Positions 13,500 through 29,757 of a stretch of DNA of 46,573 bases are shown here, one piece after another; within the stretch, counting starts at the first letter, position 1, and every line of letters starts with the position of its first letter. The position numbers were made by a program, and so were the translations under genes. The notes under the pieces are model-generated. The model worked only from the letters and a program-made list of their open reading frames with translations. It was not told the origin of the DNA and did not search any database. Location of the stretch: assembly GCA_031271325.1 (NCBI GenBank), contig JAISVY010000166.1:1-46573 (forward strand). Reading direction: 5' to 3'. This DNA is from Oscillospiraceae bacterium (GTDB lineage Bacteria > Bacillota > Clostridia > Oscillospirales > UBA929).

Positions 13500-13529
13500 C
13501 CTGATTGTTAATTCTTTATAGGCGAACGC

Positions 13530-14614: not shown

Positions 14615-14630
14615 CCTGTAGGGGTATGTT

Positions 14631-14669
14631 GAAAATTCCCCGTTTTGCGCGGTGCGCAAAACGGGGAAT
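14631..14669 (-). terminator. Rho-independent terminator ending the 10-gene transport operon
   Basis: 16-bp perfect stem ATTCCCCGTTTTGCGC (14635-14650) / GCGCAAAACGGGGAAT (14654-14669). On the minus strand it is followed by TTTTC. It lies 48 nt after the stop at 14717. Confidence 0.75.
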
Positions 14670-14716
14670 CGGGCTGCTTACCGCTGTTCCTTTTGTTACA
14701 GGCGGGAAAGCGGCGT

Positions 14717-16168
14717 TTAGTTAAATGCGTTGTTGATGTAGTCTTGGACGATGTTTTTCCATTTTTCGGTGAATTGGGTCGGGGTTTCGGAGCCGTTCAT
14801 GATGCCGCCGATGTAGAAGCCGTTGCCGTTTTCATCGGTCATAGCGAGGTCGTTCCACATGTCGTACTGCGCCTTTTCGCACATCTTTTTCGCGTATTCC
14901 CAGCCGCGGGTATCCGGGCCAAACAGGTCTTCCATCCAGGTCCAGTCATCGCGAAGCGACGTATCGCCGGCAAACCAGTTGGTGAAGTCGTAATAGACTC
15001 TGAAGACGATTTCGGGGTCGGGGGTTCCGACCGGGATCATCATGACGTTGCCGTTGAGGTTAACGGTTGCGCTCACGCCGCCCTGTGCTTCGGCGGTGGG
15101 ACCGGTCGGCCACGGTACGCTTCTGATGTCATAGGGGCAGTCTTCGGATTGGGAGACGCCGTAGTTTTGGGCAAGCCACGGGATGAAGATGAAGAACGCG
15201 AGATCGTTGTTGCTCCAGTCTCCGTTTTCCCAGAAGATTCCGCCTTCATCGCTCCACGCTTTGGCGACTTGGGAGATGTTGTACATGTCGTCAATGAAGT
15301 CAAAAACTTCTCTGGTGGGCGCGGAGGTAATTTCTTCGGTTTCGCCCAGAGCGATATGCGCGTTGTTGGAGATGAGAAGGTTTTCAAGGAAACGCACGTG
15401 ACCGCCGCTCCAGCCGTAGGTCGGGGTGCCGGTGGTCGTGTCGGTGCAAGCCTTCATGATGTCCATCCACGCCTGCCATGTCCATTCGCCCGCGTCGTAG
15501 AGATCCTGCGGGTTGGGCTGACCTTTGGCTTGCAGGATGTCATAGTTGAAGCCCAGCATATACATAGCGTTGGGGTTGATGGTGGGGGTTACGGAGAAGA
15601 TATAGTCTTTGTCCATGCCGCCGATGTTGATCGGGGTGAACACGTTTTTCGCTTCATCGTTGTTGAGGATGTCGTACGCGGGATCTGTCGCGTAGTCGGA
15701 GATGGGGATTGCGTAGCCGCTGGTGATCGGCATGATCATAAACTGCGTGTCGAGCGTGTAGATATCGACATCGGGAGTTCCCGCCTTCAGCGAGGTGTTG
15801 AGCGATTCCCTCGCGCCGTCAAAGGTCATGTTGACATAGTTGAAGGTGACGTTGTAGCGTTCCTCAATGGCGCGCATGTTGTCCAGCCGCATCTGACCTA
15901 CCATGGGATCGGCTTCGTCTTCGGGCATTTCGAGGGTGTTGGAGTCATACTCGCTGTCCCACCACTGCCCGATATAGATGTCGCGGGTGTTATTGTAGCG
16001 CAGGGAACTGCTGCTGTCGCCGCCGCTGCTGTCACCCGGATCGGTATTGCCCCCGGGTTCGTTGCTGCTATTGTCGTCGGTTGTGGCGCTGTTTCCGCCG
16101 CAAGCGGCGAGCAGTGTCAGCAGCATGAGCGCCGCGAGCGCGAGCGCAAAGATCTTTGAAAATTTCAC
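14717..16168 (-). CDS. Extracellular solute-binding lipoprotein (sugar-type ABC binding protein)
   Basis: GTG 16168 lies 7 nt after AGGAGG and gives VKFSKIFALALAALMLLTLLAAC (lipobox). A Ser/Asp/Gly linker is followed by an SBP-like body rich in W/Y/D/N. Confidence 0.8.
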   Translation of the reverse strand: MKFSKIFALALAALMLLTLLAACGGNSATTDDNSSNEPGGNTDPGDSSGGDSSSSLRYNNTRDIYIGQWWDSEYDSNTLEMPEDEADPMVGQMRLDNMRAIEERYNVTFNYVNMTFDGARESLNTSLKAGTPDVDIYTLDTQFMIMPITSGYAIPISDYATDPAYDILNNDEAKNVFTPINIGGMDKDYIFSVTPTINPNAMYMLGFNYDILQAKGQPNPQDLYDAGEWTWQAWMDIMKACTDTTTGTPTYGWSGGHVRFLENLLISNNAHIALGETEEITSAPTREVFDFIDDMYNISQVAKAWSDEGGIFWENGDWSNNDLAFFIFIPWLAQNYGVSQSEDCPYDIRSVPWPTGPTAEAQGGVSATVNLNGNVMMIPVGTPDPEIVFRVYYDFTNWFAGDTSLRDDWTWMEDLFGPDTRGWEYAKKMCEKAQYDMWNDLAMTDENGNGFYIGGIMNGSETPTQFTEKWKNIVQDYINNAFN

Positions 16169-16191
16169 TGTTTTGCCTCCTTTAACTATCA

Positions 16192-17985
16192 TTATTCCGC
16201 CGCCGCGTCGTCAGCGCTGAGGTTGAAGTTCGGTGTGTAGAGAACGACTTTAAACAGATCCATGTCTTTGTTGCGGTTTTGGATCCAGAAGGCGTTCAAA
16301 TTCGTATAGATGTCCTCTGCCGTACCGCCTTTGTCAATCCAGCCCTGTATCAGCGCTTCGGCGGAAATCATGTCGATACCGATCAGCGGGTCGCTGAATC
16401 CCAGCGGGTCGTTGATGGCGTCGCCGCCGCCGAATATCTCTTTGACCGATTTGTCTTCAGTCGCGTAACGCTGGACGCAGAACTGCGCGCCTTCTTCGGA
16501 GAGATAATACGCGATGATATACGCGCCGGGTACGAGCCATTCCGGCTCGAATTCGCCGACCGAGTCCGCTCCGGTTTCAGGAACGACGGTGGTATTCACG
16601 CGGAAGTTCAGTTGCCATGCGCCGACCGATTTGAACGGGGTATATTCGTCGGGGCTGATCGAGTTGTAAGGCGTTAGGTCGATATACCCGTCGTGTCCCG
16701 CGACATACGGTTTATAGCCCAGCTCCGCGGTGCGCTGACCGACCGAGAATTTGTTGACGGTCAGGTCTACGCCCCAGTCGCCGATATTCACGCAGTTGAC
16801 CCAGTCGAACGTTTCCGCGCCGGATGCCGCGACGATATCTTCATAGCGGTACTGCGCGATGTTTCCGGAGAGGTTTGTTGTGTACGGCGAAACCTTAACC
16901 CAGTTGTTTAACGCCGTTACGGACTCCGGAACTTCCGTGCCCTCCGCTCCCCAACTCTGGAAGATCAGCTCGGGCGCTTTTTCGCTCTTGTAGTATACGG
17001 TAAACACGGCTCCGGGCTGGATCACGCTGAGGTCGAGATCAAGCACCTTGCCCGCCTGCCCCCAGTTTGCGGAGGTTCCGGTAGCGCCGTCCTGCAGGAA
17101 GTCAATGGAAGCCTCTTCTTCGAGCGCGTAGAGCATTGTTCTGTCCGCGTCGCCGAATCCCTGCGGGGGAACGAAGGAGACGGTGGTGTCGGGTACCATC
17201 GGGTTACCCGCTTCGTCTTTGAACAGGATGTAATCAATGATTACGTTGTTAATGGGGCGGTCAACCGGCGGTTCCTCGGTGAACTCGGTGCCTTCTTCCG
17301 CCGCCAGTGCCTTTCTGTCGTTATAGGAGGTTGTGGCGGTCGTATTGGCGTCTTTGATCGCGTCGTAGGTCTTCGTGATGATCGCGATGTTTTTCTGACC
17401 CGGCTCAAAGAATTTGGTCAGCTCGGCGACGGTGGTTCTGGGGTTATTACGCTCGACGGCGACGCCCCACAGATACGCGGTTTCTGTCAGGTCCGCGCCC
17501 GTCCATGTGAGGATGTTGCCGGACATGGCGTAGAATCCGTCTCCGTTCGGGTTATCGGCGTAGATACGGGCTTCGATCGAGCGGATGTCGGCGACCTTAT
17601 CGCCAAACATGCTGGACACGTCAATGCCCAAATACGGCTGGCCGTTTTCCACCACATTGATTTTCAAGGCTTTCGCGCCATTGAAGTCAATGATCTCCAG
17701 CTCGGACGGGTCAGCGCCGCCCGGCGTCAGGTTGATGGCCATATAGCCCATGTTGCCGTCTGAGAAGTCGATGGCGCCTTCCGGCACGGGACCGATCTCG
17801 TTGACGACCGGGCTGGGATCCCACGACTGGTCACCACTCTCGGAGGGTACGGTATCCGCCGGAGTGGGGGAGTCGGCGGCTACGTCCGGCGTCGGGGAGG
17901 CGGCCTGTTCGCTGGCGCAAGCCGCAAACGCCATAAACATAAGCAAGGCAGCCAGGAGAATCGCGAAATGCTTTGTCTTCATCAT
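16192..17985 (-). CDS. 597-aa lipoprotein of unknown function, beta-rich with CBM-like segments
   Basis: Lipobox: MMKTKHFAILLAALLMFMAFAAC. A Pro/Ser/Thr linker follows. I recognised no catalytic motif. The start could also be the second ATG at 17982. Confidence 0.75.
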   Translation of the reverse strand: MMKTKHFAILLAALLMFMAFAACASEQAASPTPDVAADSPTPADTVPSESGDQSWDPSPVVNEIGPVPEGAIDFSDGNMGYMAINLTPGGADPSELEIIDFNGAKALKINVVENGQPYLGIDVSSMFGDKVADIRSIEARIYADNPNGDGFYAMSGNILTWTGADLTETAYLWGVAVERNNPRTTVAELTKFFEPGQKNIAIITKTYDAIKDANTTATTSYNDRKALAAEEGTEFTEEPPVDRPINNVIIDYILFKDEAGNPMVPDTTVSFVPPQGFGDADRTMLYALEEEASIDFLQDGATGTSANWGQAGKVLDLDLSVIQPGAVFTVYYKSEKAPELIFQSWGAEGTEVPESVTALNNWVKVSPYTTNLSGNIAQYRYEDIVAASGAETFDWVNCVNIGDWGVDLTVNKFSVGQRTAELGYKPYVAGHDGYIDLTPYNSISPDEYTPFKSVGAWQLNFRVNTTVVPETGADSVGEFEPEWLVPGAYIIAYYLSEEGAQFCVQRYATEDKSVKEIFGGGDAINDPLGFSDPLIGIDMISAEALIQGWIDKGGTAEDIYTNLNAFWIQNRNKDMDLFKVVLYTPNFNLSADDAAAE

Positions 17986-18030
17986 TTTCCCTCTTTCATA
18001 GAAATTGATTTGGCGCGCTGAAGAGAATTG

Positions 18031-19023
18031 CTATCCTACAATGCCTGAACGCTCCACCCCCTCGATAAACCGTCGTTGCAGAAATACATAGATGATGACC
18101 ATCGGTAAGATCATCAGCACTATACCTGCGTAGACATACAGTTGCTGTATATTCGGATCGACCACGCGGTCGCGGTTCGCGATGGTCGCGCCCAGCGTAT
18201 TCAGGCGCTTGCTCAGTACGATGTTGTCGCTTACGTTAAACGCGTTGGCGTAGAACAGATCGTTGTATTGCCACACCAAAGAGAACAGCGTTACCGTGAT
18301 GATCGAAGGAATGGCGTTGGGAATCATCACGCGCAAAAAGGTGAAGAACGTGCCGCCGCCGTCTACGAACGACGCTTCCTCGATTTCCTTCGGCAGCCCG
18401 CGGAAGAACTGATTGAAGATGTAGATATACAGACCGGAGCGCAAACCGGTACCGAAGATCGACAGCAGGTACAGCGGCACCGGTGTGGACAGCAGGTTCA
18501 CCTTTTCCCCGCCGAACAGGCTGAACAGCCACAGCGGGTCGAAATTGCGGAAGGTCATATACAGCGGCAGCATGATGGTGTGCGCCGGAAGAACGATCAT
18601 GACAATCACGCAGCCGAACAGCAGCCTCTTAAACGGGAAGTTGAAACGGGCGAACCCGTAGCCGACCATTGAGCAGATCGCGAGCTGGACAACCGTCAAA
18701 GAAACCACATAGAGCAGGTTGTTGCCCATGACGCGGAAATAATCCAGCCGCGTAATCGCCAGCTGATAACGCTCCAGCGTCGGCGTTTGCGGGATGAGGT
18801 AGACAAGCGGGCTGTACTGGTCTTCGTTGGAGAAGAACGAACTGACCACGATTCCGATCAGAGGCGAAATGATGACGTAGGCGATACCCACAATCAGTAT
18901 AAGCCGGAAAATAGACATGATGAACTTCTTGGTGGAGCGGACGATTCTGTTTCTTTCGTTGTGGAGTTGGGTGTCGCTCTTGGCTTTGACCCACAGGGAT
19001 CTCCCTTTATGGATGATATTCAA
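18031..19023 (-). CDS. Carbohydrate ABC transporter permease (MalG/LplC-like)
   Basis: EAA-loop motif EASFVDGGGTFFTFLRVMIPNAIPS and about 6 TM segments. TTG 19023 lies 8 nt after AAGGGGGG. Confidence 0.85.
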   Translation of the reverse strand: MNIIHKGRSLWVKAKSDTQLHNERNRIVRSTKKFIMSIFRLILIVGIAYVIISPLIGIVVSSFFSNEDQYSPLVYLIPQTPTLERYQLAITRLDYFRVMGNNLLYVVSLTVVQLAICSMVGYGFARFNFPFKRLLFGCVIVMIVLPAHTIMLPLYMTFRNFDPLWLFSLFGGEKVNLLSTPVPLYLLSIFGTGLRSGLYIYIFNQFFRGLPKEIEEASFVDGGGTFFTFLRVMIPNAIPSIITVTLFSLVWQYNDLFYANAFNVSDNIVLSKRLNTLGATIANRDRVVDPNIQQLYVYAGIVLMILPMVIIYVFLQRRFIEGVERSGIVG

Positions 19024-19037
19024 TGGTTCCGCCCCCC

Positions 19038-19970
19038 TTAATTCTGATAGAATGTGCGCTTAGAGACCCACAAACCGGCAATCAGCAGGATGCCGCAGAC
19101 AGAGAGCATGCTCACGAGGCTAAATACGGAGCCGAGCGAGTAGTTGTTGTCGTTGAATGTGGTTCGGTACGCCAAATCCAGCACCTGGCTGGTAATGAAC
19201 GAGTCTACGACCGTATAAACCATGTTCGTCACCAAAAGCGGCGACACCATCGGGAAGGTTACCTTCCAGAACGTCTCGTAGGGCGTCGCGCCTTCAATCT
19301 TCGCCACCTCGTAGAGCGAGGGAGAAATCGACTGCAGCGCCGCGAGGAAGATGATGATCTGCACCCCCGAGGAGGTGACAATCGTGCTGATCCGGCTGAC
19401 CGCTCCGGCGATGTAGTCCAGAATGGTCTGCGGGATCGCGTCTCCCAGCAGTCCTAAGTAGAAGTCTATGTTAAACCCGCCGCTTCCGCCGACCGCGTCC
19501 ATCACGACGGTGGAAACCGGACTGTTGCCTCCGATGATGGTACCCTGCGCGGTCGAGAGCGCCGTCGCGATTGAGGGCGAGTTCAGCAGCACCGGCAGGA
19601 AGAAGATTGCGCGCGCGACCGTTCTGCCTTTGAACTTTTGATTCAGCATCAACGCCATAAACAGCGAGAAGAAGAGAATCAGCGGCACGTCGATGATCAT
19701 GTTGCCGAGCGACTGCGTCAGGATCTGCCGGAAACTCGGATGCACGGAAAACGCTTCGTTGAAATACCTAAGCCCGGCAAAACCGGTAAACTGAAATCCT
19801 GTTTCCGTGTCGATTGAATTGCTGAGCGCGAAGCGAACGGTCATGCCGATGCTGAAAACATAGAAGATTATAAACCCGATCACAAACGGCGATATAAACA
19901 TCAGACCGCTGATCGAACGCCTTTGCACCAGCGTCAGTCCGCGCCGCTTCATTTTAACGGTGGTAGTCAT
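19038..19970 (-). CDS. Sugar ABC transporter permease (MalF/LplB-like)
   Basis: EAA-loop motif EVAKIEGATPYETFWKVTFPMVSPL and 6 TM segments. ATG 19970 overlaps the upstream stop (ATGA). Confidence 0.85.
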   Translation of the reverse strand: MTTTVKMKRRGLTLVQRRSISGLMFISPFVIGFIIFYVFSIGMTVRFALSNSIDTETGFQFTGFAGLRYFNEAFSVHPSFRQILTQSLGNMIIDVPLILFFSLFMALMLNQKFKGRTVARAIFFLPVLLNSPSIATALSTAQGTIIGGNSPVSTVVMDAVGGSGGFNIDFYLGLLGDAIPQTILDYIAGAVSRISTIVTSSGVQIIIFLAALQSISPSLYEVAKIEGATPYETFWKVTFPMVSPLLVTNMVYTVVDSFITSQVLDLAYRTTFNDNNYSLGSVFSLVSMLSVCGILLIAGLWVSKRTFYQN

Positions 19971-22555
19971 GCCGCGACCCCCTCTCTCACGGCATATCCT
20001 CTCGCGGGAACGGTTATGCCTTCATATGTCAGATCGCTGACGGTTCTGTTGACGATGATCTGCACGCCGTTGTCATAGGTGACGCACCGTAAGCCGTCCG
20101 GCGTAACCTCATGGGTTACCATCAGGCTGCCGCTGACCTTGGAGAGGACGGGATTGACCGTGTTGTAGAGGTTCACCGCCGTGTCTGTCCAGTTTTGATA
20201 GTAGGTGCTGTTGAAACGGTTCAGACCGGTGTACTTCATCTCGCTGGCTTCCTCATAGGTCAGGGTGAAGTGCGGCGAGGCTCCGTATTCCAGAAGCTGG
20301 AGTATGATACCGTCTTGGTCGTTGATGTCGCTTCGGTTGACGGCGTACCCGGCGTACGGGATGTATCCGTGCACCACCATTTGGTAGAAGGGAACCTCTT
20401 CATCGACGATGTAGCTTTCGTTGTGCGCGAGGGGGACGTTGATGATGTCGTCCGCGCCTTTGAACGCGTAAACGTTGCCGCCGGATACCATGATGTCTTT
20501 TCCTATGCCGTTGAGTCTCTCAAGCTGCGCTTCCACGATAGAGAGGGCGGATTCCCGGTCGATAAATTCGGTGCGCTTCCGGTCGGAGGTGAGCGTGTTG
20601 CCCAGATCCCGGAGCGAAACGCCGGTGATGTCATACCGCTCGATGTTTTTCACGAATGAGTCGATATAGCGCGGTAAAAACTTGGGAGACATCAGGTCGT
20701 ATACCGTTTCGACATACCCGAACGACCACGCGGCCTCATAGGAGAGCGGGTCAACCTGCCCCCACACGCCGACATAGCCGCCGCCGTAATACCGCGACGA
20801 TTCCTGCTGCCAATTGTAGTCTTTGCTGCGGAACCGCACTTCTTGGAAAACCACGTCGGCGTAGAGCTTGCCGCCCTGCGCTTCCAGCCGCGACGACAGT
20901 TCCTCCAGCTCGGCTTCGCTTCCGAGCTGCTTGATAAGCTTGATTTTGTGGGTAACGTCGTGATAATAACCCCTGTTGTGCCAGCCCTGATAATTGATGA
21001 CCTGATTTTGGATGCCCGCGTCGTTGAACAGACTGACGATCTCGCCGGCCTGCTCATAGGTCGTCATCGGGAGCATCCCCTCGTAGGGAACCGCCGCGAT
21101 GAACTTCGTGCCCATCGCCGCGCCGATCAGGTCGAGGTATAACGGCACGTCGCCGCCGCTTTCCTTTTCGGCAAGGACGCCTTCGCTCTCCAACTTCTCG
21201 CGATAGTAACGCGCCATACCGGAGTAGCCGTCGTATTCCTCGGTCAGGAACTTATAACGCACCGTGAGGTTTGCTTTGTATATGTTTTTCTCCACCATCG
21301 GCAAGTCTGCTTCCAGCCCGGTTGTGCCGAACATCGCGAGCGAAGCGCTGCCGCGTACGATGAAGATGGGGTAAACGGTATTGTAGCTGTTGGCCTTTCC
21401 GGCGATCCCGGCCGTCACCTGCGCGAACGACTGACCTTCTTCGATCACGGCAAAGACGCGCGAGTTTTGCTTTTGGATGCCGAACACCGGGAAACGCGCC
21501 ATTTCGGTGTTGCCAAAAACCATGTAGTCGTCGGACAGCATATCCTGTTCGTAGACATCCTGCCGGTAATCCTCCGCGCCGGTCTTGCCGTTGTTGAAGC
21601 GGATTAACGACCCCGCGCCGTTGGGCACCAGCATATACCCTTCTTCTTCACTGCCGCCCGCGTTGAAGTTGCGGAGCATATGGATTTTATCGACCATCGC
21701 GCCGCCGTTTTCCGTGATTTGGTCTGTCGGCACCTGAACGTCCAGCGTGTCGCCGTCCAGACGGTATTCCAGCGATACGCCGAAACTGACCGGCAGAGTG
21801 CCCTCGACCCCGGCTTCCGACATCATGACTTGCAGCTCTTCATCGGTGTAACCCGCCGCTGTCAGCGCTTCGGTCAGTCTGCGGATATTCGCCGCGCCGC
21901 GGGCGCCTTCGCGCAGCTCCAGGAACCCGTCCGGCGCCGCGGGTGATTCGATATAACGCGCTTCAAAGTTTGCGCGTTCTCTCTCGTCGGGGATTCTCGG
22001 CAATATCTCCGCCATCCGCTCCACGCCGAGGTAAATCGGAACCAGCCCCGTGGGAAGCGTCAGGTCGCCGATGCTGTAGTTGACGCGAACGCCGTTTTGG
22101 ATGCTCTCGTTGGTAAACTGTCCGCCCGCGATCGCGTATCTATAGGAGTTATAGGAACCGGGCGTACGCCTCGCCGTGAAGAAGTCTACCGTGATCGGAG
22201 ACTTGAGCAGTTCGTTGTTCAGTCCGGTCGCGAGCGGGTCGTCGTCGGGATTGGGCGGACAGACATAGGCGATCTCCCCGCTGCGTTTGTCGTAGACCGC
22301 CGCGTTGGTCGTCTCGGGGTTGAAGTACAGCTCTAAGAATTCGTTTTCGGCCGCGAGCACCATATCCGGCACGTTGCCGCCGGCACCCAGCTCTTTGAAC
22401 GGGGTGCCCTCTTCAAAGTTGCCGCCGCGCTCCTGGATATATTGCTTGTAGCCGTCGTACATCCGGAAATGCAGGTGCAGATAGAGCTGATACCCGCCGA
22501 AGATCAGTACGGCGGCACCCAGGAGAATCAGAAGCAGTTTTTTACCCAGTCTCAT
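19967..22555 (-). CDS. 862-aa N-terminally membrane-anchored extracytoplasmic protein of unknown function (resembles what databases label DUF5696; unverified)
   Basis: ATG 22555 lies after GGGGGGAG. There is a single N-terminal TM segment, KKLLLILLGAAVLIFGGYQLYL. I recognised no known catalytic motif. The C-terminal half alternates strand-like and helix-like segments (VINYQGWHNRGYYHD, LYADVVFQEV, ITGVSLRDLG, FYQMVVHGYIPY). Confidence 0.8.
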   Translation of the reverse strand: MRLGKKLLLILLGAAVLIFGGYQLYLHLHFRMYDGYKQYIQERGGNFEEGTPFKELGAGGNVPDMVLAAENEFLELYFNPETTNAAVYDKRSGEIAYVCPPNPDDDPLATGLNNELLKSPITVDFFTARRTPGSYNSYRYAIAGGQFTNESIQNGVRVNYSIGDLTLPTGLVPIYLGVERMAEILPRIPDERERANFEARYIESPAAPDGFLELREGARGAANIRRLTEALTAAGYTDEELQVMMSEAGVEGTLPVSFGVSLEYRLDGDTLDVQVPTDQITENGGAMVDKIHMLRNFNAGGSEEEGYMLVPNGAGSLIRFNNGKTGAEDYRQDVYEQDMLSDDYMVFGNTEMARFPVFGIQKQNSRVFAVIEEGQSFAQVTAGIAGKANSYNTVYPIFIVRGSASLAMFGTTGLEADLPMVEKNIYKANLTVRYKFLTEEYDGYSGMARYYREKLESEGVLAEKESGGDVPLYLDLIGAAMGTKFIAAVPYEGMLPMTTYEQAGEIVSLFNDAGIQNQVINYQGWHNRGYYHDVTHKIKLIKQLGSEAELEELSSRLEAQGGKLYADVVFQEVRFRSKDYNWQQESSRYYGGGYVGVWGQVDPLSYEAAWSFGYVETVYDLMSPKFLPRYIDSFVKNIERYDITGVSLRDLGNTLTSDRKRTEFIDRESALSIVEAQLERLNGIGKDIMVSGGNVYAFKGADDIINVPLAHNESYIVDEEVPFYQMVVHGYIPYAGYAVNRSDINDQDGIILQLLEYGASPHFTLTYEEASEMKYTGLNRFNSTYYQNWTDTAVNLYNTVNPVLSKVSGSLMVTHEVTPDGLRCVTYDNGVQIIVNRTVSDLTYEGITVPARGYAVREGVAA

Positions 22556-22566
22556 GATTCTCCCCC

Positions 22567-23199
22567 CTACGATCGGAGCGTCAGCTCTGAATATATGCCG
22601 CGGAACATTCCGGTCACTTGGTTCAGCATATCAAAGAGCAGAACCGCGAGGAAAATAACAATCAGCATGGCGACAATCGTAATGATCAGAGTAACGATGG
22701 TCTTCAGCATCGTGTAGTTGTGGATCGTCATGATGCCGAGCAGAATCAGGATCCCCGACCAGGCGAAGCCGAAACCGAGGATGATGTTGTAGAAGATCTC
22801 CTCGTTTTCGCCCAGCACGTTGGAGACGATAATCGCGGGGATATAGGTGATGATCAGCGGCATCAGCGCATATCCGGCGACGGTGAGAATATCTTTGAAA
22901 CGCCCTTCGCCTTCGCTCAGGCAGGTGACCGACCAGTTGCCGATGCTGAACAGCACGAACAGCAGCAAGATTCTTGTCAGGTCGTCGATTCCGTTGACGG
23001 TGCGCGGGTCGGTCAGGTTGACGATGAACCCCGCGAAGATGCGGTTCATGGTGAAGCAGATGCTGAACACCAGAAGGGTGATCAGGGCGAGGGGAACGCT
23101 GCCCTTCTCACGGTGGCGGATCTCGTAGAAGCTGTCGATCGGGTTGGTCAGCACGCGCCGGTAGTAGTAAAAGATTTCTTTGTTGAAAAACTTACTCAT
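22567..23199 (-). CDS. YIP1-family integral membrane protein
   Basis: 210 aa. The N-terminus MSKFFNKEIFYYYRRVLTNPIDSFYEIRHREKGSVPLALITLLV is followed by about 5 TM segments, the typical bacterial Yip1-domain layout. ATG 23199 overlaps the upstream gene by 8 nt. Confidence 0.75.
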   Translation of the reverse strand: MSKFFNKEIFYYYRRVLTNPIDSFYEIRHREKGSVPLALITLLVFSICFTMNRIFAGFIVNLTDPRTVNGIDDLTRILLLFVLFSIGNWSVTCLSEGEGRFKDILTVAGYALMPLIITYIPAIIVSNVLGENEEIFYNIILGFGFAWSGILILLGIMTIHNYTMLKTIVTLIITIVAMLIVIFLAVLLFDMLNQVTGMFRGIYSELTLRS

Positions 23200-24667
23200 C
23201 GGAAACCATATCCCCCTTCCCGGCACCTCTGCGCCGGATTAAGCGCCATATATACAGTGCCACCAGCAGAATCGCGAAACCCGTCAGGATGTTGCCGAGG
23301 TTCTCTTTGAGGATGTCGTTCCGGTAGCGCTTGAACGCGATGGAGTAGTAGGTGCGGTTCATGCCGAGCTTCAGGTGCCGCATCGCCTCTTTGTTGTTGC
23401 CCTCGGTGAGGTAGGCTTTCCCGATGCCGACGTTGGCCAGTTCGAGGTTTTCGTTGAGTTTCAGCACCTCGCGCCATTTTTCGACCGCCTGTTTTTCGTC
23501 GCCGTCATAGCGCAGCCCGACCGCTTCGTTGATCAGTCGGCCGTAATCGGTCTCCTTAAACGCCATAACTTCCTGCCGGTCGGTGTCGAGAACCAAGATT
23601 CTGTCTCCGATGTAAGCGATCGAGGACGGCTGGCGGAATGTTCCCTCTTGTGTGCCAAGCCCTCCGAAGATATAGAGCAGGTTTCCCTCGTCGTCATAGG
23701 TGAATATGCGCCCGCGCCGTCTGTCCAGCATCGAGTAGATGCCCTTGTCGCGCACGACGATGTCTACGATGTAGGAGGGACCGCCGTAATCCAGCGTATT
23801 CGGCGCCGGGTAGGTATCGCCGCCGAGGTTGCCGTTTTCGCCCTTTTGGATGACGTCCTCACCTTTGGGGTTGAGCCGGAACGCTGCCTGCGTGCCGTTC
23901 GGATCAATGCAGGAGGCGTAGATGAACCCTTCTTTGTCCACAGAAACGCCCGTGAACTCGGTCGGGATGAAGAGCGTCGAGCCGCTTAACTGTTCCTGAG
24001 AGGAGAACAGCCGCCAAAACCGCTGCCACAGGGAGACGGTTACCGGGATTGTGCCGTAGAACCCGGTGAAGTCGCCCGTCTCGTTGAATACCATGATGCC
24101 TTGGAACATACTCTGCCCGATGACGTATACGCGGTCGGCGTAATCGACGCCCAGTTCCAAGGGGATAAAGACATAATCGTCCGCGAGCATTTCGGATACC
24201 GGGTTTTGGATGATCCTGACCAGCTCGCCCTCTTCCAGCACCACGATGCGGTGATTATCGGAGTCGGCTATGTAGAGCTGCCCTTTTTCGGATACCGTAA
24301 CGCCCCACGGTTTGTTGAACGTGTCGTCGAACGCCGCCCCGTCTTCCCCGGTGTTTGCAAAGCCTGTGATGACCTCGGCCTCGGTCATCTCCGGGTTCAT
24401 AACGACGATGCGGTTGTTGCCCGTATCGGCCACGTAGACCCTGCCGTCCGGTCCGACGCAAATGCCCCGGGGCAGACTGAACGCCCCGACACCCAGATTC
24501 ACGCCGGAGACGTTGCCGTCCGGGATATACGGCGAAGGCGTGAACTCGAGGTATTGGCGGTAGTTGAAGATGTACGAATCGTACGGCACATCGACGGCGG
24601 CGAAGACGGGAAGCGTACAGAACGCCGCCAGCGCGAGCACCAAGGGTAAAATCCGCTTCAAAATCAT
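23192..24667 (-). CDS. Secreted six-blade NHL-repeat beta-propeller protein with TPR-like segment and C-terminal TM anchor
   Basis: ATG 24667 lies after AAGGGGGG. Signal peptide: MILKRILPLVLALAAFCTLPVFA. NHL-type blades: GRVYVADTGNNRIVVMN, GQLYIADSDNHRIVVLE, DRVYVIGQSMFQGIMVFN, GFIYASCIDPNG, GIYSMLDRRRGRIFTYD, DRILVLDTDRQEVMAFK. Tail: KAYLTEGNNKEAMRHLKLG, then the TM segment ILTGFAILLVALYIWRLI. The 705-aa ORF-track version is an upstream read-through into the permease gene. Confidence 0.85.
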   Translation of the reverse strand: MILKRILPLVLALAAFCTLPVFAAVDVPYDSYIFNYRQYLEFTPSPYIPDGNVSGVNLGVGAFSLPRGICVGPDGRVYVADTGNNRIVVMNPEMTEAEVITGFANTGEDGAAFDDTFNKPWGVTVSEKGQLYIADSDNHRIVVLEEGELVRIIQNPVSEMLADDYVFIPLELGVDYADRVYVIGQSMFQGIMVFNETGDFTGFYGTIPVTVSLWQRFWRLFSSQEQLSGSTLFIPTEFTGVSVDKEGFIYASCIDPNGTQAAFRLNPKGEDVIQKGENGNLGGDTYPAPNTLDYGGPSYIVDIVVRDKGIYSMLDRRRGRIFTYDDEGNLLYIFGGLGTQEGTFRQPSSIAYIGDRILVLDTDRQEVMAFKETDYGRLINEAVGLRYDGDEKQAVEKWREVLKLNENLELANVGIGKAYLTEGNNKEAMRHLKLGMNRTYYSIAFKRYRNDILKENLGNILTGFAILLVALYIWRLIRRRGAGKGDMVSDE

Positions 24668-24675
24668 AACCCCCC

Positions 24676-25587
24676 TTAGTCTTTCATGCCGGAGGTGGTC
24701 ATCGTCTCTAAGATGCTGGACTGGCATATGAGGAAGAAGGTGATCGGAATAGCCGCCAGCACCAACGCGACGGCGGCGGAAGCGCCGGCGCGGGCGGCGC
24801 CGCCCGCCGTGATCTGCTGCATGGCGTATTGCAGCGGCTTCAGTTCTTCGTTGCGCAGGAACAGATAGCCGGTGTTGCTCCACATCGTCTGGAACTGGAA
24901 GATCGCGAGCGTGAGCCACGCGGGTTTGACGTTCGGCATGATGATCTTCCAAAATACGCGGATTTCGCCCGCGCCGTCCATCCGGGCGGACTCGATCAGC
25001 GAATCGGGGATCTGCTCCATAAACTGCTTCATCAGGTACAGCCCCAGCCCGTAGCCCCACGCGGGCAGGATCAGCGCCCAGTAGGTATTGTTGATGTGCA
25101 GGTAGCTGACGATGACATAGTTCGGAATCATCGTGACCTGATAGGTAAACATGATCGAGAAGATAACCAGCGTAAACAGCAGTTTTTTGCCGGGGAATTT
25201 GTGCTTTGCCAGCGGATACGCCGCGAACGACGCCACGATCACGTGCCCGACGGTGCCGCACCCGGTGATGATCACCGTGTTGAAGATATAGCGCGAGAAA
25301 GGCACCCATGAGTCGCTCATCAGGATAAACAGGTCGGAGAAGTTCTCAAAGGTGGGGTTGCGCACAAATATCGCGGGGGGGAACTGGAAGATTTCGTCCA
25401 GCGGTTTTAAGGAGTTGTTGATGATCATCACCAGCGGCATGACCATAAATACGCCGCACAGCCCCATAAAGAGGAACAGCATCACGTTGCCCGCCCGCGA
25501 ACGGTTGAGCTTGCGCTTGCGGCGGAATAGGCGTTCACGCAGCGTCTCCTTCTCGGAGAAGACCGGTCTGGCTTTACTCTTAACCAT
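24676..25587 (-). CDS. Carbohydrate ABC transporter permease (MalG-like)
   Basis: EAA-loop motif ESARMDGAGEIRVFWKIIMPNVKPA and 6 TM segments. Confidence 0.9.
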   Translation of the reverse strand: MVKSKARPVFSEKETLRERLFRRKRKLNRSRAGNVMLFLFMGLCGVFMVMPLVMIINNSLKPLDEIFQFPPAIFVRNPTFENFSDLFILMSDSWVPFSRYIFNTVIITGCGTVGHVIVASFAAYPLAKHKFPGKKLLFTLVIFSIMFTYQVTMIPNYVIVSYLHINNTYWALILPAWGYGLGLYLMKQFMEQIPDSLIESARMDGAGEIRVFWKIIMPNVKPAWLTLAIFQFQTMWSNTGYLFLRNEELKPLQYAMQQITAGGAARAGASAAVALVLAAIPITFFLICQSSILETMTTSGMKD

Positions 25588-25591
25588 CTGA

Positions 25592-26509
25592 CTACTCGCC
25601 CACCCTTCTCAGGAACCGCTGCACGAGCCTGTTGGTTCCCACCATCATGATAAACAGCACGGTGGCAATCGCCGACGCGTACCCCATCTCAAAACGCACG
25701 CCGCCGTAGTCGGAAAGGTGCGTGACGATTGTCGCTCCGGCATACCCGACCGAGGGGTTGCCGGCCAGCTGCAATGAGATGTCCGCCACGGCGAACGCCC
25801 CGGTAATCTGCATGACAGCGCCGAACATCAGCTGAGGGCGCATCGCGGGGAGGGTTACGAACCAAAGCTCCTGCCAGCGGTTCTTAATGCCGTCGATCGC
25901 GGCCGCCTCGTAGAGCGACTTGTCGATTGTTTGCAGACCCGCGATGAACGCGAGGAAGCCTGTGCCGAGGCTCAGCCAGAGCTGTACGACGATCAGCACC
26001 GGCATGATGTACTGCGCCGTCCGCATCCAGAGGATCGGTTCCTGTATGAAGTCGTATTGCAGCAAGAAGCCGTTCAGGTAACCGTAACGGTCGCCGGTGA
26101 GGATGATGTTCCAGATCAGGTACGCCTGCCCCGATATGGACGGCGCGTAGAAGATCAGCGTGAGGAAGGCGCGCAGCTTGCCTTTGAATTCGTTGATAAT
26201 CCACGCGAACAGCAGGCAGAGGATATAGCTGATCGGCCCGGTGATGACGGCGAAGATCAGCGTGTTTTTCAGCGCGAGGACAAAGATGTCGTCTTCCAGC
26301 AGCAGTTTGAGGTAGTTTGACCACCCGATCCACTGCGGGGCTTCCAGCATGTTAAAATAGGTCAGGGAGATGAACATCGACGCGATGACCGGCAAGATCG
26401 TAAAGAGCGTGAAGAGCAGGAAATACGGCGCAATCATAATATAGGAGATGCGGTTTTTGGCCATCAGCGTCCCGACAAAGGGCTTTTGAAGGTCTTTCTG
26501 CTTCGTCAA
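25592..26509 (-). CDS. Sugar ABC transporter permease (MalF-like)
   Basis: EAA-loop motif EAAAIDGIKNRWQELWFVTLPAMRP and 6 TM segments. TTG 26509 lies 8 nt after AGGGGG and 1 nt after the upstream stop. Confidence 0.85.
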   Translation of the reverse strand: MTKQKDLQKPFVGTLMAKNRISYIMIAPYFLLFTLFTILPVIASMFISLTYFNMLEAPQWIGWSNYLKLLLEDDIFVLALKNTLIFAVITGPISYILCLLFAWIINEFKGKLRAFLTLIFYAPSISGQAYLIWNIILTGDRYGYLNGFLLQYDFIQEPILWMRTAQYIMPVLIVVQLWLSLGTGFLAFIAGLQTIDKSLYEAAAIDGIKNRWQELWFVTLPAMRPQLMFGAVMQITGAFAVADISLQLAGNPSVGYAGATIVTHLSDYGGVRFEMGYASAIATVLFIMMVGTNRLVQRFLRRVGE

Positions 26510-26510
26510 G

Positions 26511-29492
26511 TTATTCGCCCCCTATCCCGTCTTCGTAAAGAGTCAACCCGAACTCTTCCCGTTTGAAGTCGATTTCGTCGTTGATCAGGATGACTTTGTC
26601 GGTCAGCGCCTCGCGCGGGAACTCAAAGACCGTTTCAGCCGACCCGATCACCGAGCTGCCGGTGACGACCGCGTAAAACGCGTTGTTGACGTTGCGGTAG
26701 CTGAAGTAGCCGCCCGGCACCTGCGGGATGCCCTTGACCGAATCGAATTGCCTGTTCAGCGCCTGATAGTCGGCAACCGGCCACGGCAGCTGCGCGAACG
26801 CTTCGATGTTGGCCGACGGGTGGCGCGCCGCCGCGCCCATCAGGCTTTCCATCTCGCGCCCGAACAGCGTCTGCGTTTCGGCGTCTGTCCACCATTTGAT
26901 GAATTCCCAGGAATTTTCGGGGGTATTGTCGGATTTCATGATGATACAGCCCGAACCGAAGCTGCCGACCGAACGGTCGAGGGAGCCGTCTTCCTGAACC
27001 GTCGCGGGCACGGGCGCAAAGCCCCACAGACCCTTGATGTCGGGAGCCGAAACTTGGAGCGTGTTATAGAAGGAGAAGTCGTTGATGATCAGCGGCGTCT
27101 CGCCGGTGCGGAAGCGTTCCTCGACGCTGGTGTCTTTGTCGAGTTTGTAGTCGGTGTAGAACTCGGTATACTTTTTGAAGGCGTTGATGGCCTGATCGCT
27201 GTCGAGCGCGGAGCGGGTGGCGTCTTCGTTATAGTACTCCCCGCCGTTTTGGTAGAGAATCATCGAGAAGATCTGCTCGGTCGGCAGCATTCCCAGCTCC
27301 ATCATGTTGTTGGCGAGCACGGCCAGCGTGGTTTTCATTTCGTCCCACGTGTTGGGGACTTCGAGGTTCAGCTCTTTCATGATGTCCTTGCGGTAGAACA
27401 TCATCGGGAAGGTCTGGGTTTCCGGCAGGGCGTAAACCGCGCCGTCGTAGGTGAACGCCTCCATTACGCTCGGACGGAACCGCGTCAGCACCTCGTCCAA
27501 GTCTTCAAACTGCGTAAGATCCTGCACGGCGTTGCGCAGCCCGTAGTTCATGGGGAGGTCGTTCGCGACCTGTATCGCGACGTCCGGTCCCTGCCCCGCA
27601 AGCGTCGCCTGCAAAAGCGTGCCCATATCGACCAGCATCGCGTTGACGCCGATGCCGGTTTCGCGGGTGAACGTTTCGTCGATCAGGTTTTTGATGACGT
27701 TGGCCTGGTCGCGCCCCGAGCCGATCCAGAGGGTGACCGATTCCGTGTCTTCTTCCTCGGAGATGTTGCCGATTTGGTTGTAGTCGATCACGAACGAATA
27801 GAAGAGGCGGGAGATTTCGTACCAAATGCCGGCAAAGATGTTGTCGTTCGGCGCGCTCATGTTCTTGCCGGGCGCGTGGAAGGTGATCGTATCCACCCGC
27901 AGGGGTTGATCGATGGCCTGCGTGAGCCACGTGCCGCAGGCGCGGATGTTGATGCGGAACGAGGCGACCGTTTTGGAGAATCTTTCCTGGTTTTCGATCA
28001 GCTCGTTGAGCTGGATGATCATCGTTTTCAGGACGCGCTCACGGTCGCTGCGCTTGCCCGCGATTCTCTGAAGCTCGTCGATCGACCATTGCAGGCTGTC
28101 CCGCACGGCGACCAGTTCGCCTTTGAGTTCGGGCAGACTGTACGCCACCTGATAGTCGCGGTTCCGGTCAGGCCTCACGCCGGTCAGGCGGATGACTTTC
28201 CGGTAGATACGGTTCAGCTCGAACACCGCTTCGCGCACCACGCTGATGATCTCGGAGAAACTGCCGAGCACCGCTTCCATACGGACGGTGTGCCGTCCCG
28301 CTTCCAAGAAAATCTTGTAGGGGTCGCCTTCTTTTTGCGTGAGCTTTTCCATCGTCCAGTTCTGGCGGTAGATAAAACCGTATTCCGAAAACTCCGCGAA
28401 CGGCACTTTGCCGTCGATGTAGATTTTGCGCGACACGTAAATACCGCGCGAAAAATTCTGCAGCACATGGGCGGATATTTCGTACAGACCGCTCTCCGGC
28501 GCGTCGAATTCCCATTCGATCCAGTGACCCGCAATCCGCCACGACTGCCCGCCGATTGTGTTGTTCAGCAGCAGTTTCGCGCTGGAGGGGCTGACTGTGG
28601 GCGAGGACTGGTCTTGGTCGGGATAGAGCATCTGAGAGGAGGTCTTGACCGCGTTCTGCCCCTGAACCGTTACGAGCGCTTCGGACGACACGTCTTTGGC
28701 TCCGGCGGCTTCCCACCCGGCCAGCACTTCGGCGTAGGAGAGGAGCGGCTCGGTGTTTTGAAACGTGAACTTACGGAGCAGCATCGGTTCGCGCATCGAC
28801 ATGAGGGTCAGCACGTGCTCGCCCTCGGTGAGGTACAGCGAGAGGTTGTCGGTGATGTATCCGTCGCTGTCATAGAGCAGAGATTCCGTCCACTCGGGGA
28901 TCTCGATCATCTTGGGCTTGAGGTCGTTGCCCTGGTTGTCCTTCGGCCAGACCGGCGCGCTCTGTCCGGCTTCCCGGGCTTCTTCGGCGACCGTGTTTGT
29001 CCACTGCCGCTCGAACTCCACCGTAGACAGCTCGCGGAAGGGCAGAACGCCGTCCAGGAATAACGAGCGCTGAATCTCGGAGCTTTTGCCCTCCACCGGG
29101 AAGTAGAGCAGAGAGAGGTCGTACAGCCCCGCCTCCGGAACGGTGAACGTGTACTCAATGACCGCGTCTTCCTCGGTCAGTACGCTGTCGCCTGTTTGCC
29201 CCTCGTAATCGGCGTAGATTTCCGGCTCCGCTTCCGCGCCGCCTTCTTCGTACCGCGCGTAACCCGCCGCGTCGATTTCGATCACGCCGGACGGCCGGTT
29301 TTGCGGCTGCCGGTCTATGTAATCGCGGTAGGTGGGGATGGATTCGTCGACGGAGTAACCCTCTAAGATGTCCTCGTACTCCAGGCGCGTCTTTTCCCCC
29401 GCCGTATAACCATACGCGAGTGACGACGACCCCAGCAGGACGAACGCTGTGAAAACAGCCAGCGTTTGTAACACGCGCCGTTTCCGAGTCAT
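26511..29492 (-). CDS. 993-aa extracellular protein: signal/anchor, two CBM6/35-like modules, a helical segment and a C-terminal ABC solute-binding domain
   Basis: ATG 29492 lies after AAGAGGGGG. The N-terminal hydrophobic segment LQTLAVFTAFVLLGSSSLAYG has no lipobox Cys. Duplicated modules lie at about aa 70-245 and 275-415. The SBP-like part begins near aa 585 (TLWIGSGRDQANVIKNLIDETF...GPDVAIQV...). Confidence 0.85.
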   Translation of the reverse strand: MTRKRRVLQTLAVFTAFVLLGSSSLAYGYTAGEKTRLEYEDILEGYSVDESIPTYRDYIDRQPQNRPSGVIEIDAAGYARYEEGGAEAEPEIYADYEGQTGDSVLTEEDAVIEYTFTVPEAGLYDLSLLYFPVEGKSSEIQRSLFLDGVLPFRELSTVEFERQWTNTVAEEAREAGQSAPVWPKDNQGNDLKPKMIEIPEWTESLLYDSDGYITDNLSLYLTEGEHVLTLMSMREPMLLRKFTFQNTEPLLSYAEVLAGWEAAGAKDVSSEALVTVQGQNAVKTSSQMLYPDQDQSSPTVSPSSAKLLLNNTIGGQSWRIAGHWIEWEFDAPESGLYEISAHVLQNFSRGIYVSRKIYIDGKVPFAEFSEYGFIYRQNWTMEKLTQKEGDPYKIFLEAGRHTVRMEAVLGSFSEIISVVREAVFELNRIYRKVIRLTGVRPDRNRDYQVAYSLPELKGELVAVRDSLQWSIDELQRIAGKRSDRERVLKTMIIQLNELIENQERFSKTVASFRINIRACGTWLTQAIDQPLRVDTITFHAPGKNMSAPNDNIFAGIWYEISRLFYSFVIDYNQIGNISEEEDTESVTLWIGSGRDQANVIKNLIDETFTRETGIGVNAMLVDMGTLLQATLAGQGPDVAIQVANDLPMNYGLRNAVQDLTQFEDLDEVLTRFRPSVMEAFTYDGAVYALPETQTFPMMFYRKDIMKELNLEVPNTWDEMKTTLAVLANNMMELGMLPTEQIFSMILYQNGGEYYNEDATRSALDSDQAINAFKKYTEFYTDYKLDKDTSVEERFRTGETPLIINDFSFYNTLQVSAPDIKGLWGFAPVPATVQEDGSLDRSVGSFGSGCIIMKSDNTPENSWEFIKWWTDAETQTLFGREMESLMGAAARHPSANIEAFAQLPWPVADYQALNRQFDSVKGIPQVPGGYFSYRNVNNAFYAVVTGSSVIGSAETVFEFPREALTDKVILINDEIDFKREEFGLTLYEDGIGGE

Positions 29493-29578
29493 TCGATAGC
29501 CCCCTCTTAGTAAGCTCAGTGCCGCTACGAAGCGGAAAATTCAGCACAATGCCGATACCCGCACAAGGCGTGTCATTA

Positions 29579-29607
29579 ATTTTAATATATTTTTAACAAA
29601 AAGTCAA
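29579..29607 (-). promoter_or_regulatory. Sigma-A-type promoter of the 10-gene transport operon
   Basis: Minus strand: TTGACT (29607-29602), 17 nt, TAAAAT (29584-29579), in a locally AT-rich stretch. The leader is about 80 nt, with a small hairpin CCGCTTCGTAGCGG. Confidence 0.6.
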
Positions 29608-29680
29608 TAGTGATTCGGTTGTCCGTTTAGAACTTTTTTAGGGGATTCTTTTCTGCCGCTATGTGTTTAACAGGTTCTGT

Positions 29681-29709: not shown

Positions 29710-29757
29710 CACGGCGGCACCGCGAAGCGGGGATTTATACAGGGAGGTATGTTCAAA

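Follow-up and report, generated by a model that had tools for sequence, protein, structure and literature searches.

A ten-gene operon of an Oscillospiraceae bacterium with two CUT1-type importer modules and a conserved NHL, Yip1 and DUF5696 trio

Organization of the operon

The analysed DNA, hereafter called the window, is a 46,573-bp stretch of an uncultured gut Oscillospiraceae bacterium (assembly GCA_031271325.1, contig JAISVY010000166.1, positions 1 to 46,573). Ten open reading frames (ORFs) of its minus strand, running from 29492 down to 14717, were predicted as an operon. They encode two sugar-type ABC transporter modules, i.e., permease pairs with solute-binding proteins (SBPs), placed around an NHL-repeat protein, a Yip1-family protein and a DUF5696 protein (Table 1). 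The gene junctions were +1, +4, +8, -8, +11, -4, +14, +45, and +23 nucleotides (nt), i.e., the start of gene 5 lies 8 nt inside gene 4, and the start of gene 7 lies 4 nt inside gene 6. A GGAGG or GGGGG ribosome-binding site was found 5-12 nt ahead of each of the ten genes.

The promoter was the sole 10/12 match upstream of the operon on the minus strand, whereas the matches inside the operon were all 9/12. The terminator showed a folding energy of -44.6 kcal/mol (z = -7.7 vs. shuffled sequences). Terminator-like matches inside the operon on this strand had 5-8 pairs only and poor T tails. The simplest reading is that the ten genes share one transcript, as their layout suggests. No cre catabolite-repression box was detected beyond chance-level matches, none of them close to the promoter; the leader contained no inverted-repeat operator, and the Rfam scan of the whole window gave no RNA family. 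An earlier reading of this DNA, made without database searches and called here the sequence-only reading, had listed the same ten genes and nine junctions, which were reproduced exactly. Its promoter, with none comparable inside the operon, and its downstream terminator were also borne out, with a stem of 17 bp here instead of 16 bp.

Table 1. Features of the operon in the window, in the order of transcription (aa, amino acids; TM, transmembrane; SBP, solute-binding protein)
Feature	Position	Strand	Evidence or remark
Promoter, sigma-70-type, TTGACT-17-TAAAAT	29579..29607	-	10/12 match; about 80 nt 5' of gene 1 start codon
Gene 1, 993-aa giant SBP	26511..29492	-	Pfam SBP_bac_1/8, AlphaFold (AF2) model, Foldseek
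Gene 2, MalF/UgpA-like permease, module 1, 305 aa, TTG start	25592..26509	-	EAA loop EAAAIDG
Gene 3, MalG/UgpE-like permease, module 1, 303 aa	24676..25587	-	EAA loop ESARMDG
Gene 4, 491-aa secreted NHL beta-propeller	23192..24667	-	Pfam NHL, E 7e-26
Gene 5, 210-aa Yip1-family membrane protein	22567..23199	-	Pfam Yip1, E 3e-18
Gene 6, 862-aa DUF5696 protein	19967..22555	-	Pfam PF18952
Gene 7, permease, module 2, 310 aa	19038..19970	-	EAA-like loop YEVAKIEGA
Gene 8, MalG-like permease, module 2, 330 aa, TTG start	18031..19023	-	EAA loop EEASFVDGG
Gene 9, 597-aa lipoprotein, CBM65_1	16192..17985	-	Pfam E 6e-20; lipobox AFAAC
Gene 10, 483-aa lipoprotein, family-1 SBP of module 2, GTG start	14717..16168	-	Pfam SBP_bac_1; lipobox LLAAC
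Intrinsic terminator, perfect 17-bp stem, 3-nt loop, UUUUC tail	about 14630-14670	-	sequence and RNA fold

Transporter modules and binding proteins

Genes 2, 3, 7, and 8 were assigned to BPD_transp_1, and their best NCBIfam matches were UgpA, UgpE, MalG, GlcT, and GlcU. The EAA coupling loops are kept in all four permeases. With these MalF/MalG-type pairs and the family-1 SBPs of genes 1 and 10 (both SBP_bac_1), the operon holds two complete CUT1-type translocator modules, each composed of a MalF-like permease, a MalG-like permease and its own SBP. The two permease pairs, the gene 9 lipoprotein and the gene 10 lipoprotein SBP had been named correctly from the letters alone. A CBM65_1 module, of a CAZy-listed family of carbohydrate-binding modules (CBMs), was located at residues 300-412 of gene 9. 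In the PDB, gene 10 had no sequence relative, and gene 9 had none beyond chance.

The giant SBP of gene 1 has an N-terminal TM or signal helix by hydropathy, and Pfam placed SBP_bac_1/8 at residues 580-880. In the AlphaFold model (pLDDT 84.6, 48-sequence alignment), the protein is ordered as a beta-sandwich (71-244), a second beta-sandwich (273-408), a four-helix bundle (412-527) and a MalE-like domain (about 580-980). The top Foldseek matches were Lmo0181, GacH, CbpB, the sophoro-oligosaccharide binding protein and CpMnBP1. The ligands of the solved structures nearest to the SBP domain are cycloalternan, acarbose or maltose, cellodextrins, sophoro-oligosaccharides, and mannotriose. The PDB sequence matches were oligosaccharide SBPs as well, and the best one binds a beta-1,2-gluco-oligosaccharide. 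This fold search was dominated by the SBP domain, and the beta-sandwich modules and the helical bundle got no assignment. Two CBM6/35-like modules had been claimed for this protein. Two beta-sandwich modules are indeed present in the model, but the CBM6/35 label was not verified: in the N-terminal part Pfam recognized no CBM6/35 and gave only a sub-threshold match to Golvesin_C.

No MalK/MsmX-type ATPase was found in the operon, as had been noted before, or anywhere else in the window. The sole ABC ATPase of the window (30712-32034) belongs to a divergent NMT1-type system, and when it was searched against the close loci (defined below) by tblastn, only its own orthologues were matched. The close-locus flanks checked also had no importer ATPase, except for one MsmX/MalK-like gene at the edge of L003. 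In Firmicutes, CUT1 importers that share MsmX have no ATPase gene in their operons, e.g., AraNPQ, GanSPQ, and YesOPQ of Bacillus subtilis. An importer ATPase encoded elsewhere, as in the MsmX-sharing systems, fits the data and is presumed here.

Conservation of the cassette

Two sets of related loci were collected. For the close set, a DUF5696 alignment was searched against one genome per GTDB species, in which 442 matching stretches encode a relative. The best 80 of these were kept and completed with eight direct look-ups, i.e., 88 loci, and were searched by tblastn with the ten window proteins. The distant set was made up of 80 loci from a metagenome scan seeded with distant DUF5696 members.

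All ten genes were found in the same order in 52/54 close loci long enough to judge, and the other two were without a detectable gene 9 only. These close loci belong to Oscillospiraceae and Lachnospiraceae, including Roseburia, Acetatifactor, Marvinbryantia, Anaerocolumna, and Anaerotaenia torta. Cultured carriers of the cassette include A. torta and Lachnospiraceae bacterium IMSAGC_011. Over longer distances an eight-gene core remained, i.e., giant SBP, permease, permease, NHL, Yip1, DUF5696, permease, permease. It was complete and in order in 43/43 assessable distant loci and also in L090-L094. Among all 168 related loci, DUF5696 stood inside the core in every one long enough to judge, and members only 26-31% identical to the window protein still lay within the same core. 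The core order is invariant across very divergent loci. The co-conservation of the NHL, Yip1 and 862-aa proteins with the transporters, on which the sequence-only reading had depended, is therefore established by these counts. The DUF5696 profile reached 5929 clusters (50% identity) at E<=1e-3 and 3600 at E<=1e-30, and the eight-gene core is common to thousands of Clostridia loci.

The genes of the cassette are conserved to different degrees. The median identities to the distant counterparts were 65% (gene 2) and 59% for the module 1 permeases, 43% and 42% for the module 2 permeases, 41% for the giant SBP, 40% for NHL, 36% for Yip1, and 33% for DUF5696. Of all genes of the cassette, gene 2 is conserved best (73-93% among close loci). 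Genes 9 and 10 evolve fastest, with 24-57% for gene 9 among close loci. The gene 9 position is a variable slot, occupied by an F5/8-type-C protein in L091 and by a 425-aa protein of no assigned family in L093, and empty in L094. The small SBP of the distant loci lies either 5' of the giant SBP or 3' of module 2. As a separate observation, in a Clostridiales metagenome-assembled genome (MAG; L045, about 12574-17673) the second permease of module 2 was found about 4 kb further downstream, which suggests an insertion inside the cassette.

The strong conservation of module 1 among loci for different glycans (medians of 59-65% vs. 42-43% for the module 2 permeases) could also be read as a division of labour, in which module 1 would be a sensor or trigger reporting extracellular glycan, and module 2 the real nutrient importer. 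In Firmicutes, sensors resembling SBPs are known to work with histidine kinase/AraC pairs; histidine kinase or AraC regulators flank some of the loci, and the four-helix bundle of the giant SBP is of a kind seen in sensor proteins. However, both module 1 permeases have canonical EAA loops for ATPase docking, none of the ten proteins carries a signalling domain, and many loci have LacI-type regulators or none nearby. A sensor role is considered quite improbable.

NHL and Yip1 proteins

Gene 4 encodes a signal peptide, NHL repeats, a helical tail, and a C-terminal TM anchor (459-477). Its PDB matches were NHL propellers, the PknD sensor domain among them. The NHL propeller and the C-terminal anchor of the sequence-only reading were confirmed, whereas its TPR-like tail was seen only as a weak TPR match below the cut-off (E 0.003). 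Gene 5 had been described as a 5-TM YIP1 protein, and the Pfam match and five hydrophobic segments agree with this.

The two proteins were found as one fused polypeptide in L093 (7812-9980) and in 8/70 informative distant loci (L101, L104, L107, L120, L125, L133, L140, and L165), with fused proteins of 685-722 aa. Because they are fused in some loci, NHL and Yip1 may act together, by the Rosetta-stone argument. A precedent comes from Bacillus, where the Yip1 protein YknW is reported to modulate how the YknXYZ ABC transporter is assembled (PMC4887032, with reference to Yamada et al. 2012).

The operon could be supposed to consist of two ordinary, independent CUT1 importers that merely flank three passenger genes with no functional coupling, and each module does have its own SBP and a permease pair with EAA loops. 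The order of the genes is identical in the close and distant loci counted above, despite divergence to 28-43% identity, and DUF5696 lay inside the core in every locus long enough to judge. The start/stop overlaps between genes 4 and 5 and between genes 6 and 7, and the NHL-Yip1 fusions, also speak against separate units. The two modules as independent neighbours were rejected on this synteny (52/54 close, 43/43 distant), and such an arrangement is regarded as very unlikely.

DUF5696 protein

Gene 6 matched PF18952 over its full length, i.e., profile positions 3-612 of 612 (E 8.7e-189, 629 bits vs. a cut-off of 25.6). No motif had been nameable in this 862-aa protein before, which no longer holds with the Pfam assignment. 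The same reading had placed DUF5696 in similar neighbourhoods of other Firmicutes, and its mention of this family was correct, the 862-aa protein being DUF5696 itself. The protein has one N-terminal TM helix, and the flanking charges predict an N-in orientation with an extracellular domain.

The AlphaFold model (46 sequences) had a pLDDT of 87.3 and a pTM of 0.85. It consists of an N-terminal beta-sandwich region, a (beta/alpha)8 barrel at about 470-805, and a C-terminal beta-sandwich. In Foldseek against the PDB, the model matched the 3,6-anhydro-D-galactosidase ZgGH129 (5opq, glycoside hydrolase (GH) family GH129; E 7e-32, TM-score on target 0.68), the alpha-GalNAc-ase NagBb (5wzn/5wzr, GH129; E about 2e-23, TM-score on target 0.72-0.74), GH101 endo-alpha-GalNAc-ases (E about 1e-16), GH36 alpha-galactosidases and galactosaminidases (E about 1e-13), and various GH31 enzymes (E about 6e-11 and weaker). 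A plain phmmer search against the PDB found nothing, and gene 6 was matched by neither the GH129 (PF11308) nor the GH101 Pfam model. The DUF5696 family profile reached NagBb marginally over residues 429-581 (E 0.002), where the invariant NYQGW strand was aligned with HLDGW. NagBb-like metagenomic fragments carry precomputed matches to both PF12905 (GH101) and PF18952. By the Foldseek matches, the NagBb profile match and the fragments shared by PF12905 and PF18952, DUF5696 is a remote homologue of GH129 and GH101. As an observation on the models, a NagBb-like GH129 gene in L089 (1-1846) is frameshifted into three ORFs, of which the middle piece matches both the GH101 and DUF5696 Pfam models, i.e., these models overlap.

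DUF5696 shares with GH129 and GH101 the same succession of N-terminal beta-sandwich, (beta/alpha)8 barrel and C-terminal beta-sandwich (Foldseek E 7e-32 to 1e-15), an xGW strand motif, and, in the comparison by eye, a strand-end Asp with a second Asp eight residues on. The identity is only 10-13%, and DUF5696 is longer by about 200 residues at the N-terminus and has a TM anchor. HLDGW of NagBb is NYQGW in DUF5696, and the invariant D718 and E756 appear downstream in DUF5696. Neither this protein nor the NHL protein was placed in a characterised GH family by Pfam, in agreement with the sequence-only reading. That reading had seen no recognizable carbohydrate-active enzyme (CAZyme) in the operon. 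This stands at the level of Pfam glycoside hydrolases, but DUF5696 has a glycosidase fold and gene 9 carries CBM65.

For the catalytic half, NagBb residues 410-628 were recovered by way of a frameshifted homologue, and the homologue search with the NagBb fragment gave only short fragments. In NagBb, D435 is the nucleophile and E478 the acid/base. The motif SLRD650LG...SD658 of DUF5696 resembles AYLD435VF...GD443 of NagBb in an alignment made by eye; hhalign of the catalytic half was not significant (probability 1.4%). The acid/base stretch ILTSSE478E aligns by eye with IMVSGGN694, which puts G693/N694, with no acidic residue, at this position. DUF5696 thus has no counterpart of the GH129 acid/base Glu, and N694 itself is conserved in 90-96%.

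D650 was invariant in 46 orthologues and present in 65/77 distant loci. In the same distant loci D658 was present in 71, R667 in 77, N694 in 74, D718 in 74, E756 in 77, and H815 in 75. The few sequences seen without D650 (motifs SLTT and IAAL) carry N at the D658 position. D650 and D718 are 68 residues apart, the same spacing as between the two catalytic Asp residues of GH36 and GH31 enzymes. This conservation pattern supports the presence of an active site of some kind. From the model and the alignment, a catalytic role of DUF5696 is probable, in a GH family not yet classified and with a relocated acid/base.

A non-catalytic DUF5696 has to be weighed against this. It would be a pseudo-glycosidase with a glycan-binding or structural role, the trio would serve as a scaffold or chaperone, and separate enzymes such as GH26 would carry out hydrolysis. 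The Gly/Asn at the GH129 acid/base position is what such a protein would show, and D650 occurred in only 85/139 (61%) of a broader representative set. The trio is constant while the neighbouring CAZymes vary with the substrate, which is consistent with a generic role, and an endo-enzyme already adjoins the cassette in most loci. On the other side, sequences of only about 33% identity keep D650, D658, D718, and E756, together with R667, N694, and H815, in 84-100% of cases. D658 is replaced too where a loss of D650 was seen, as expected of an active site. The Asp-Asp spacing agrees with that of GH36 and GH31, and the fold matches were all active glycosidases. A pseudo-enzyme is judged unlikely on this evidence, with a chance large enough to be taken seriously.

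Genomic context and candidate glycan

In 53/60 close loci, the giant SBP gene is directly preceded by a GH26-CBM35 mannanase gene that ends no more than 1.2 kb upstream, and a DUF624 gene often separates the two. Downstream of the cassette, the close relatives have GH130, GH5, GDSL esterases, melibiase, a GlcNAc-2-epimerase-family gene, and LacI. LacI lay near the cassette in 25 loci, and a separate melibiase within 10 kb was found in only 5/88. Because these flanking genes are a beta-mannan utilisation set, the close clade was linked to beta-mannan. Small DUF624 (YesL-like) membrane-protein genes were additionally seen at the ends of the cassette in 52 close loci (e.g., 2382-2990 and 17966-18601 in L005). 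They stand between the genes of GH26 and the giant SBP, behind the small SBP gene, or at both places, and are absent from the window.

No Pfam glycoside hydrolase or regulator was found in the whole window. The missing regulator and hydrolases of the sequence-only reading are hence a fact for the window and not a general property, as the relatives carry GH26, GH130, GH5, esterases, and LacI. GH26 is absent from the window and from its closest relative, L009. Another relative, L010, shares the divergent NMT1 neighbour of the window, with GH26 in between. Because L010 has this neighbour and still has GH26, the window copy is assigned as a stripped-down member of the mannan clade. It is an ordinary family member without the usual enzymes, and the interest lies in the family more than in this locus.

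The cassette could also work as proposed below while the substrate of the window copy is another beta-glycan, e.g., xyloglucan, mixed-linkage glucan, or cellodextrin fragments. The window and L009 have no GH26, and CBM65, the module of gene 9, is best known for binding xyloglucan and beta-glucan. The best PDB sequence match of the giant SBP binds a gluco-oligosaccharide, and the specificity candidates, genes 9 and 10, are the fastest-evolving of the cassette. However, both genes have orthologues of 39-48% identity at the same position in the GH26-linked L008, L010, and L012, L010 has the same chromosomal neighbour gene as the window, and CBM65 lipoproteins were present in all GH26/GH130-linked loci looked at. 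A non-mannan substrate is accordingly held to be a minor but appreciable possibility.

The distant cassettes are surrounded by other enzymes. In a Pfam census of 155 flanking ORFs, the GH counts were GH10 14, GH43 11, GH26 8, GH130 4, GH53 3, GH5 3, GH18 3, GH2/mannosidase 3, GH30 2, GH113 1, GH95 1, and GH88 1. Individual distant loci also had GH106 and GH109-like genes, and the regulators were of LacI, AraC and histidine-kinase types. Because the flanking CAZymes vary among the distant cassettes, the core can be regarded as a generic platform that is paired with different enzyme sets.

Proposed function

The operon is interpreted as a Gram-positive cell-surface machine that would capture, trim and import plant-glycan fragments and is built on the eight-gene core. 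We hold this with modest confidence, somewhat above an even chance. Surface glycan capture, processing and import had been proposed by the sequence-only reading too, and the proposal is supported here, with the trio co-conserved and no described system matched under the literature search terms tried.

Module 1 uses the membrane-tethered 993-aa SBP, and module 2 an ordinary lipoprotein SBP. In the proposed mechanism, the CBM65 lipoprotein and the two beta-sandwich modules of this giant SBP would keep a polysaccharide or large oligosaccharide at the cell surface. DUF5696 would be a membrane-anchored ecto-glycosidase that cuts side groups off backbone oligosaccharides before uptake, with D650 as the candidate nucleophile and D718 or E756 as the candidate acid/base. 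The substrate of the close clade would be beta-mannan, i.e., galacto- or glucomannan fragments, and the group removed by DUF5696 would most plausibly be the alpha-linked galactose on galacto(gluco)mannan fragments. Alpha-galactosyl removal is suggested because all structural neighbours belong to the retaining alpha-glycosidases that act on galacto-configured sugars, and because a melibiase is so rarely encoded near the close loci. By analogy with YknW, NHL-Yip1 may be a membrane scaffold or assembly factor that joins the two translocators, the giant SBP and DUF5696. The CBM65 lipoprotein and the small SBP would set the substrate specificity. The two CUT1 translocators would import the products, powered by a shared MsmX/MalK-type ATPase. 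Because the window copy is without the GH26 that nearly all its relatives have, the host probably scavenges oligosaccharides that an unlinked enzyme or other members of the community set free.

Several points weigh against this interpretation. The catalytic half of DUF5696 aligns poorly with NagBb, the NagBb acid/base has no acidic counterpart, and D650 is lost in a considerable part of the broader set. If DUF5696 is generic across xylan, mannan, galactan and chitin cassettes, an alpha-galactosidase role is not obviously transferable. A physical association of the proteins would be deduced solely from the order of the genes, the start/stop overlaps and a single class of fusion. A simple importer specific for one substrate does not account for how strongly module 1 is conserved between substrate classes. 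The mannan assignment of the window operon is indirect, with no GH26, GH130 or regulator nearby and with the glucan-type binding best known for CBM65.

A bolder form of the proposal can be put forward tentatively, as possible rather than probable. The eight-gene core might be a single membrane supercomplex, the Firmicute counterpart of Sus, in which the Yip1/NHL scaffold couples the two importers to the anchored enzyme. Decorated oligosaccharides of many plant glycans could then be bound, trimmed and handed over at one site. DUF5696 might found a new CAZy GH family, with the acid/base moved relative to GH129/GH101.

Comparison with known systems

Beta-mannan loci have reportedly been characterised in Roseburia intestinalis and Faecalibacterium prausnitzii. 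These loci comprise extracellular GH26 with CBMs, a CUT1 importer with a lipoprotein SBP, GH130, 2-epimerase, acetyl-esterases, alpha-galactosidase and LacI, and the same accessory set was found around the close relatives of the window cassette. They differ in having one transporter, and they are not known to carry DUF5696, Yip1, NHL, a giant SBP or a CBM65 lipoprotein. The window copy differs further by having no GH26, GH130, 2-epimerase, esterases or regulator, whereas the orthologous cassettes have them nearby. A Gram-positive polysaccharide utilisation locus is said to combine a degrading enzyme, a transporter and a regulator. The window does not show this combination, while its relatives have GH26 (53/60) and LacI (25 loci).

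The cassette resembles the MsmX-sharing CUT1 importers in its MalF/MalG-type pairs with EAA loops, its family-1 SBPs and its lack of an ATPase gene. It differs in locking two modules to three extra proteins. Also, one of its SBPs exceeds the usual size more than twofold and carries a TM anchor, a pair of beta-sandwich modules and a helical bundle.

Like the Bacteroidota Sus-like loci, the cassette is a conserved core, combined with variable CAZymes, in which a transporter is encoded together with a surface enzyme and with lipoproteins that bind glycans at the surface and carry CBM-like modules. However, Sus uses SusC/SusD TonB-dependent outer-membrane transport, other proteins and another envelope, so the likeness is an analogy only. 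YknWXYZ is similar in that a small polytopic Yip1-family protein is encoded in an ABC-transporter operon (PMC4887032). YknYZ, of the MacB type, is an exporter that has a membrane-fusion protein, whereas the cassette encodes type-I importers. With no orthology beyond the Pfam domain, this is analogy and not membership.

A literature search found nothing relevant on DUF5696, or on the architecture of two importers with NHL-Yip1-DUF5696 and a giant SBP, under the terms tried. The locus likewise matched no described utilisation system in this search, which leaves the sequence-only reading standing on this point. The general kind is known, i.e., a Gram-positive glycan locus with SBP-dependent ABC import. 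The particular architecture, which combines two importers with the NHL-Yip1-DUF5696 trio and a multi-module giant SBP and recurs in loci for different glycans, is apparently unstudied.

Neighbouring genes and base composition

Upstream of the operon lies the divergent NMT1-type SBP gene with its ABC ATPase, which is not sugar-related. In this region (30638-32034, plus strand), a 440-aa ORF starts from GTG 30712, and ABC_tran was found only at its residues 265-391. It overlaps a 271-aa ORF (30638-31453). The true ATPase of the NMT1 system probably starts later than GTG 30712, and the overlapping 271-aa ORF may be its permease.

The genes downstream of the operon are not related to sugar use either. 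They encode a 292-aa lipoprotein, a 616-aa SBP without partner genes, PrmA and an M16 peptidase, and His-biosynthesis genes and a PBP lie further out. The 292-aa lipoprotein gene and its promoter lie within 13530-14439 (minus strand), and this promoter, TTGACA-17-TATAAT at 14439-14411, is a perfect consensus. Its product has the lipobox LMSAC, is rich in Met, Asp, and Thr, and has no Pfam, NCBIfam or PDB relative. The orphan family-1 SBP gene (11483-13333, plus strand) is convergent to the operon, has no adjoining permease genes and was missed by Pfam. The protein resembles the alginate-binding proteins AlgQ1/AlgQ2, 5gub (family 1 extracellular SBP) and 5g5y (ABC-transporter substrate-binding protein). 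The flanking 292-aa and 616-aa genes were rejected as members of the system because none of the related loci has a counterpart of them. With L009-L011 the window has the upstream neighbour in common, and not the downstream genes.

The part of the window from 11000 to 30000, i.e., the operon and three downstream genes, has 53-59% G+C vs. 61-67% in the housekeeping flanks. This difference suggests that a block of about 19 kb was acquired horizontally.

Significance

Members of Lachnospiraceae and Oscillospiraceae rank among the main degraders of fibre in the guts of humans, livestock and, to judge from MAG names, termites. Current models of glycan uptake in these families are of single SBP-dependent ABC importers, and the cassette is far more elaborate and widespread. 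One core serves, in different loci, for mannan, xylan, galactan and other glycans, and it contains three protein families without an assigned role in sugar uptake. Working out the cassette would give a function to a large DUF and would probably define a new glycoside-hydrolase family. It would also give roles to bacterial Yip1 and NHL proteins and would sharpen the prediction of fibre utilisation from genomes.

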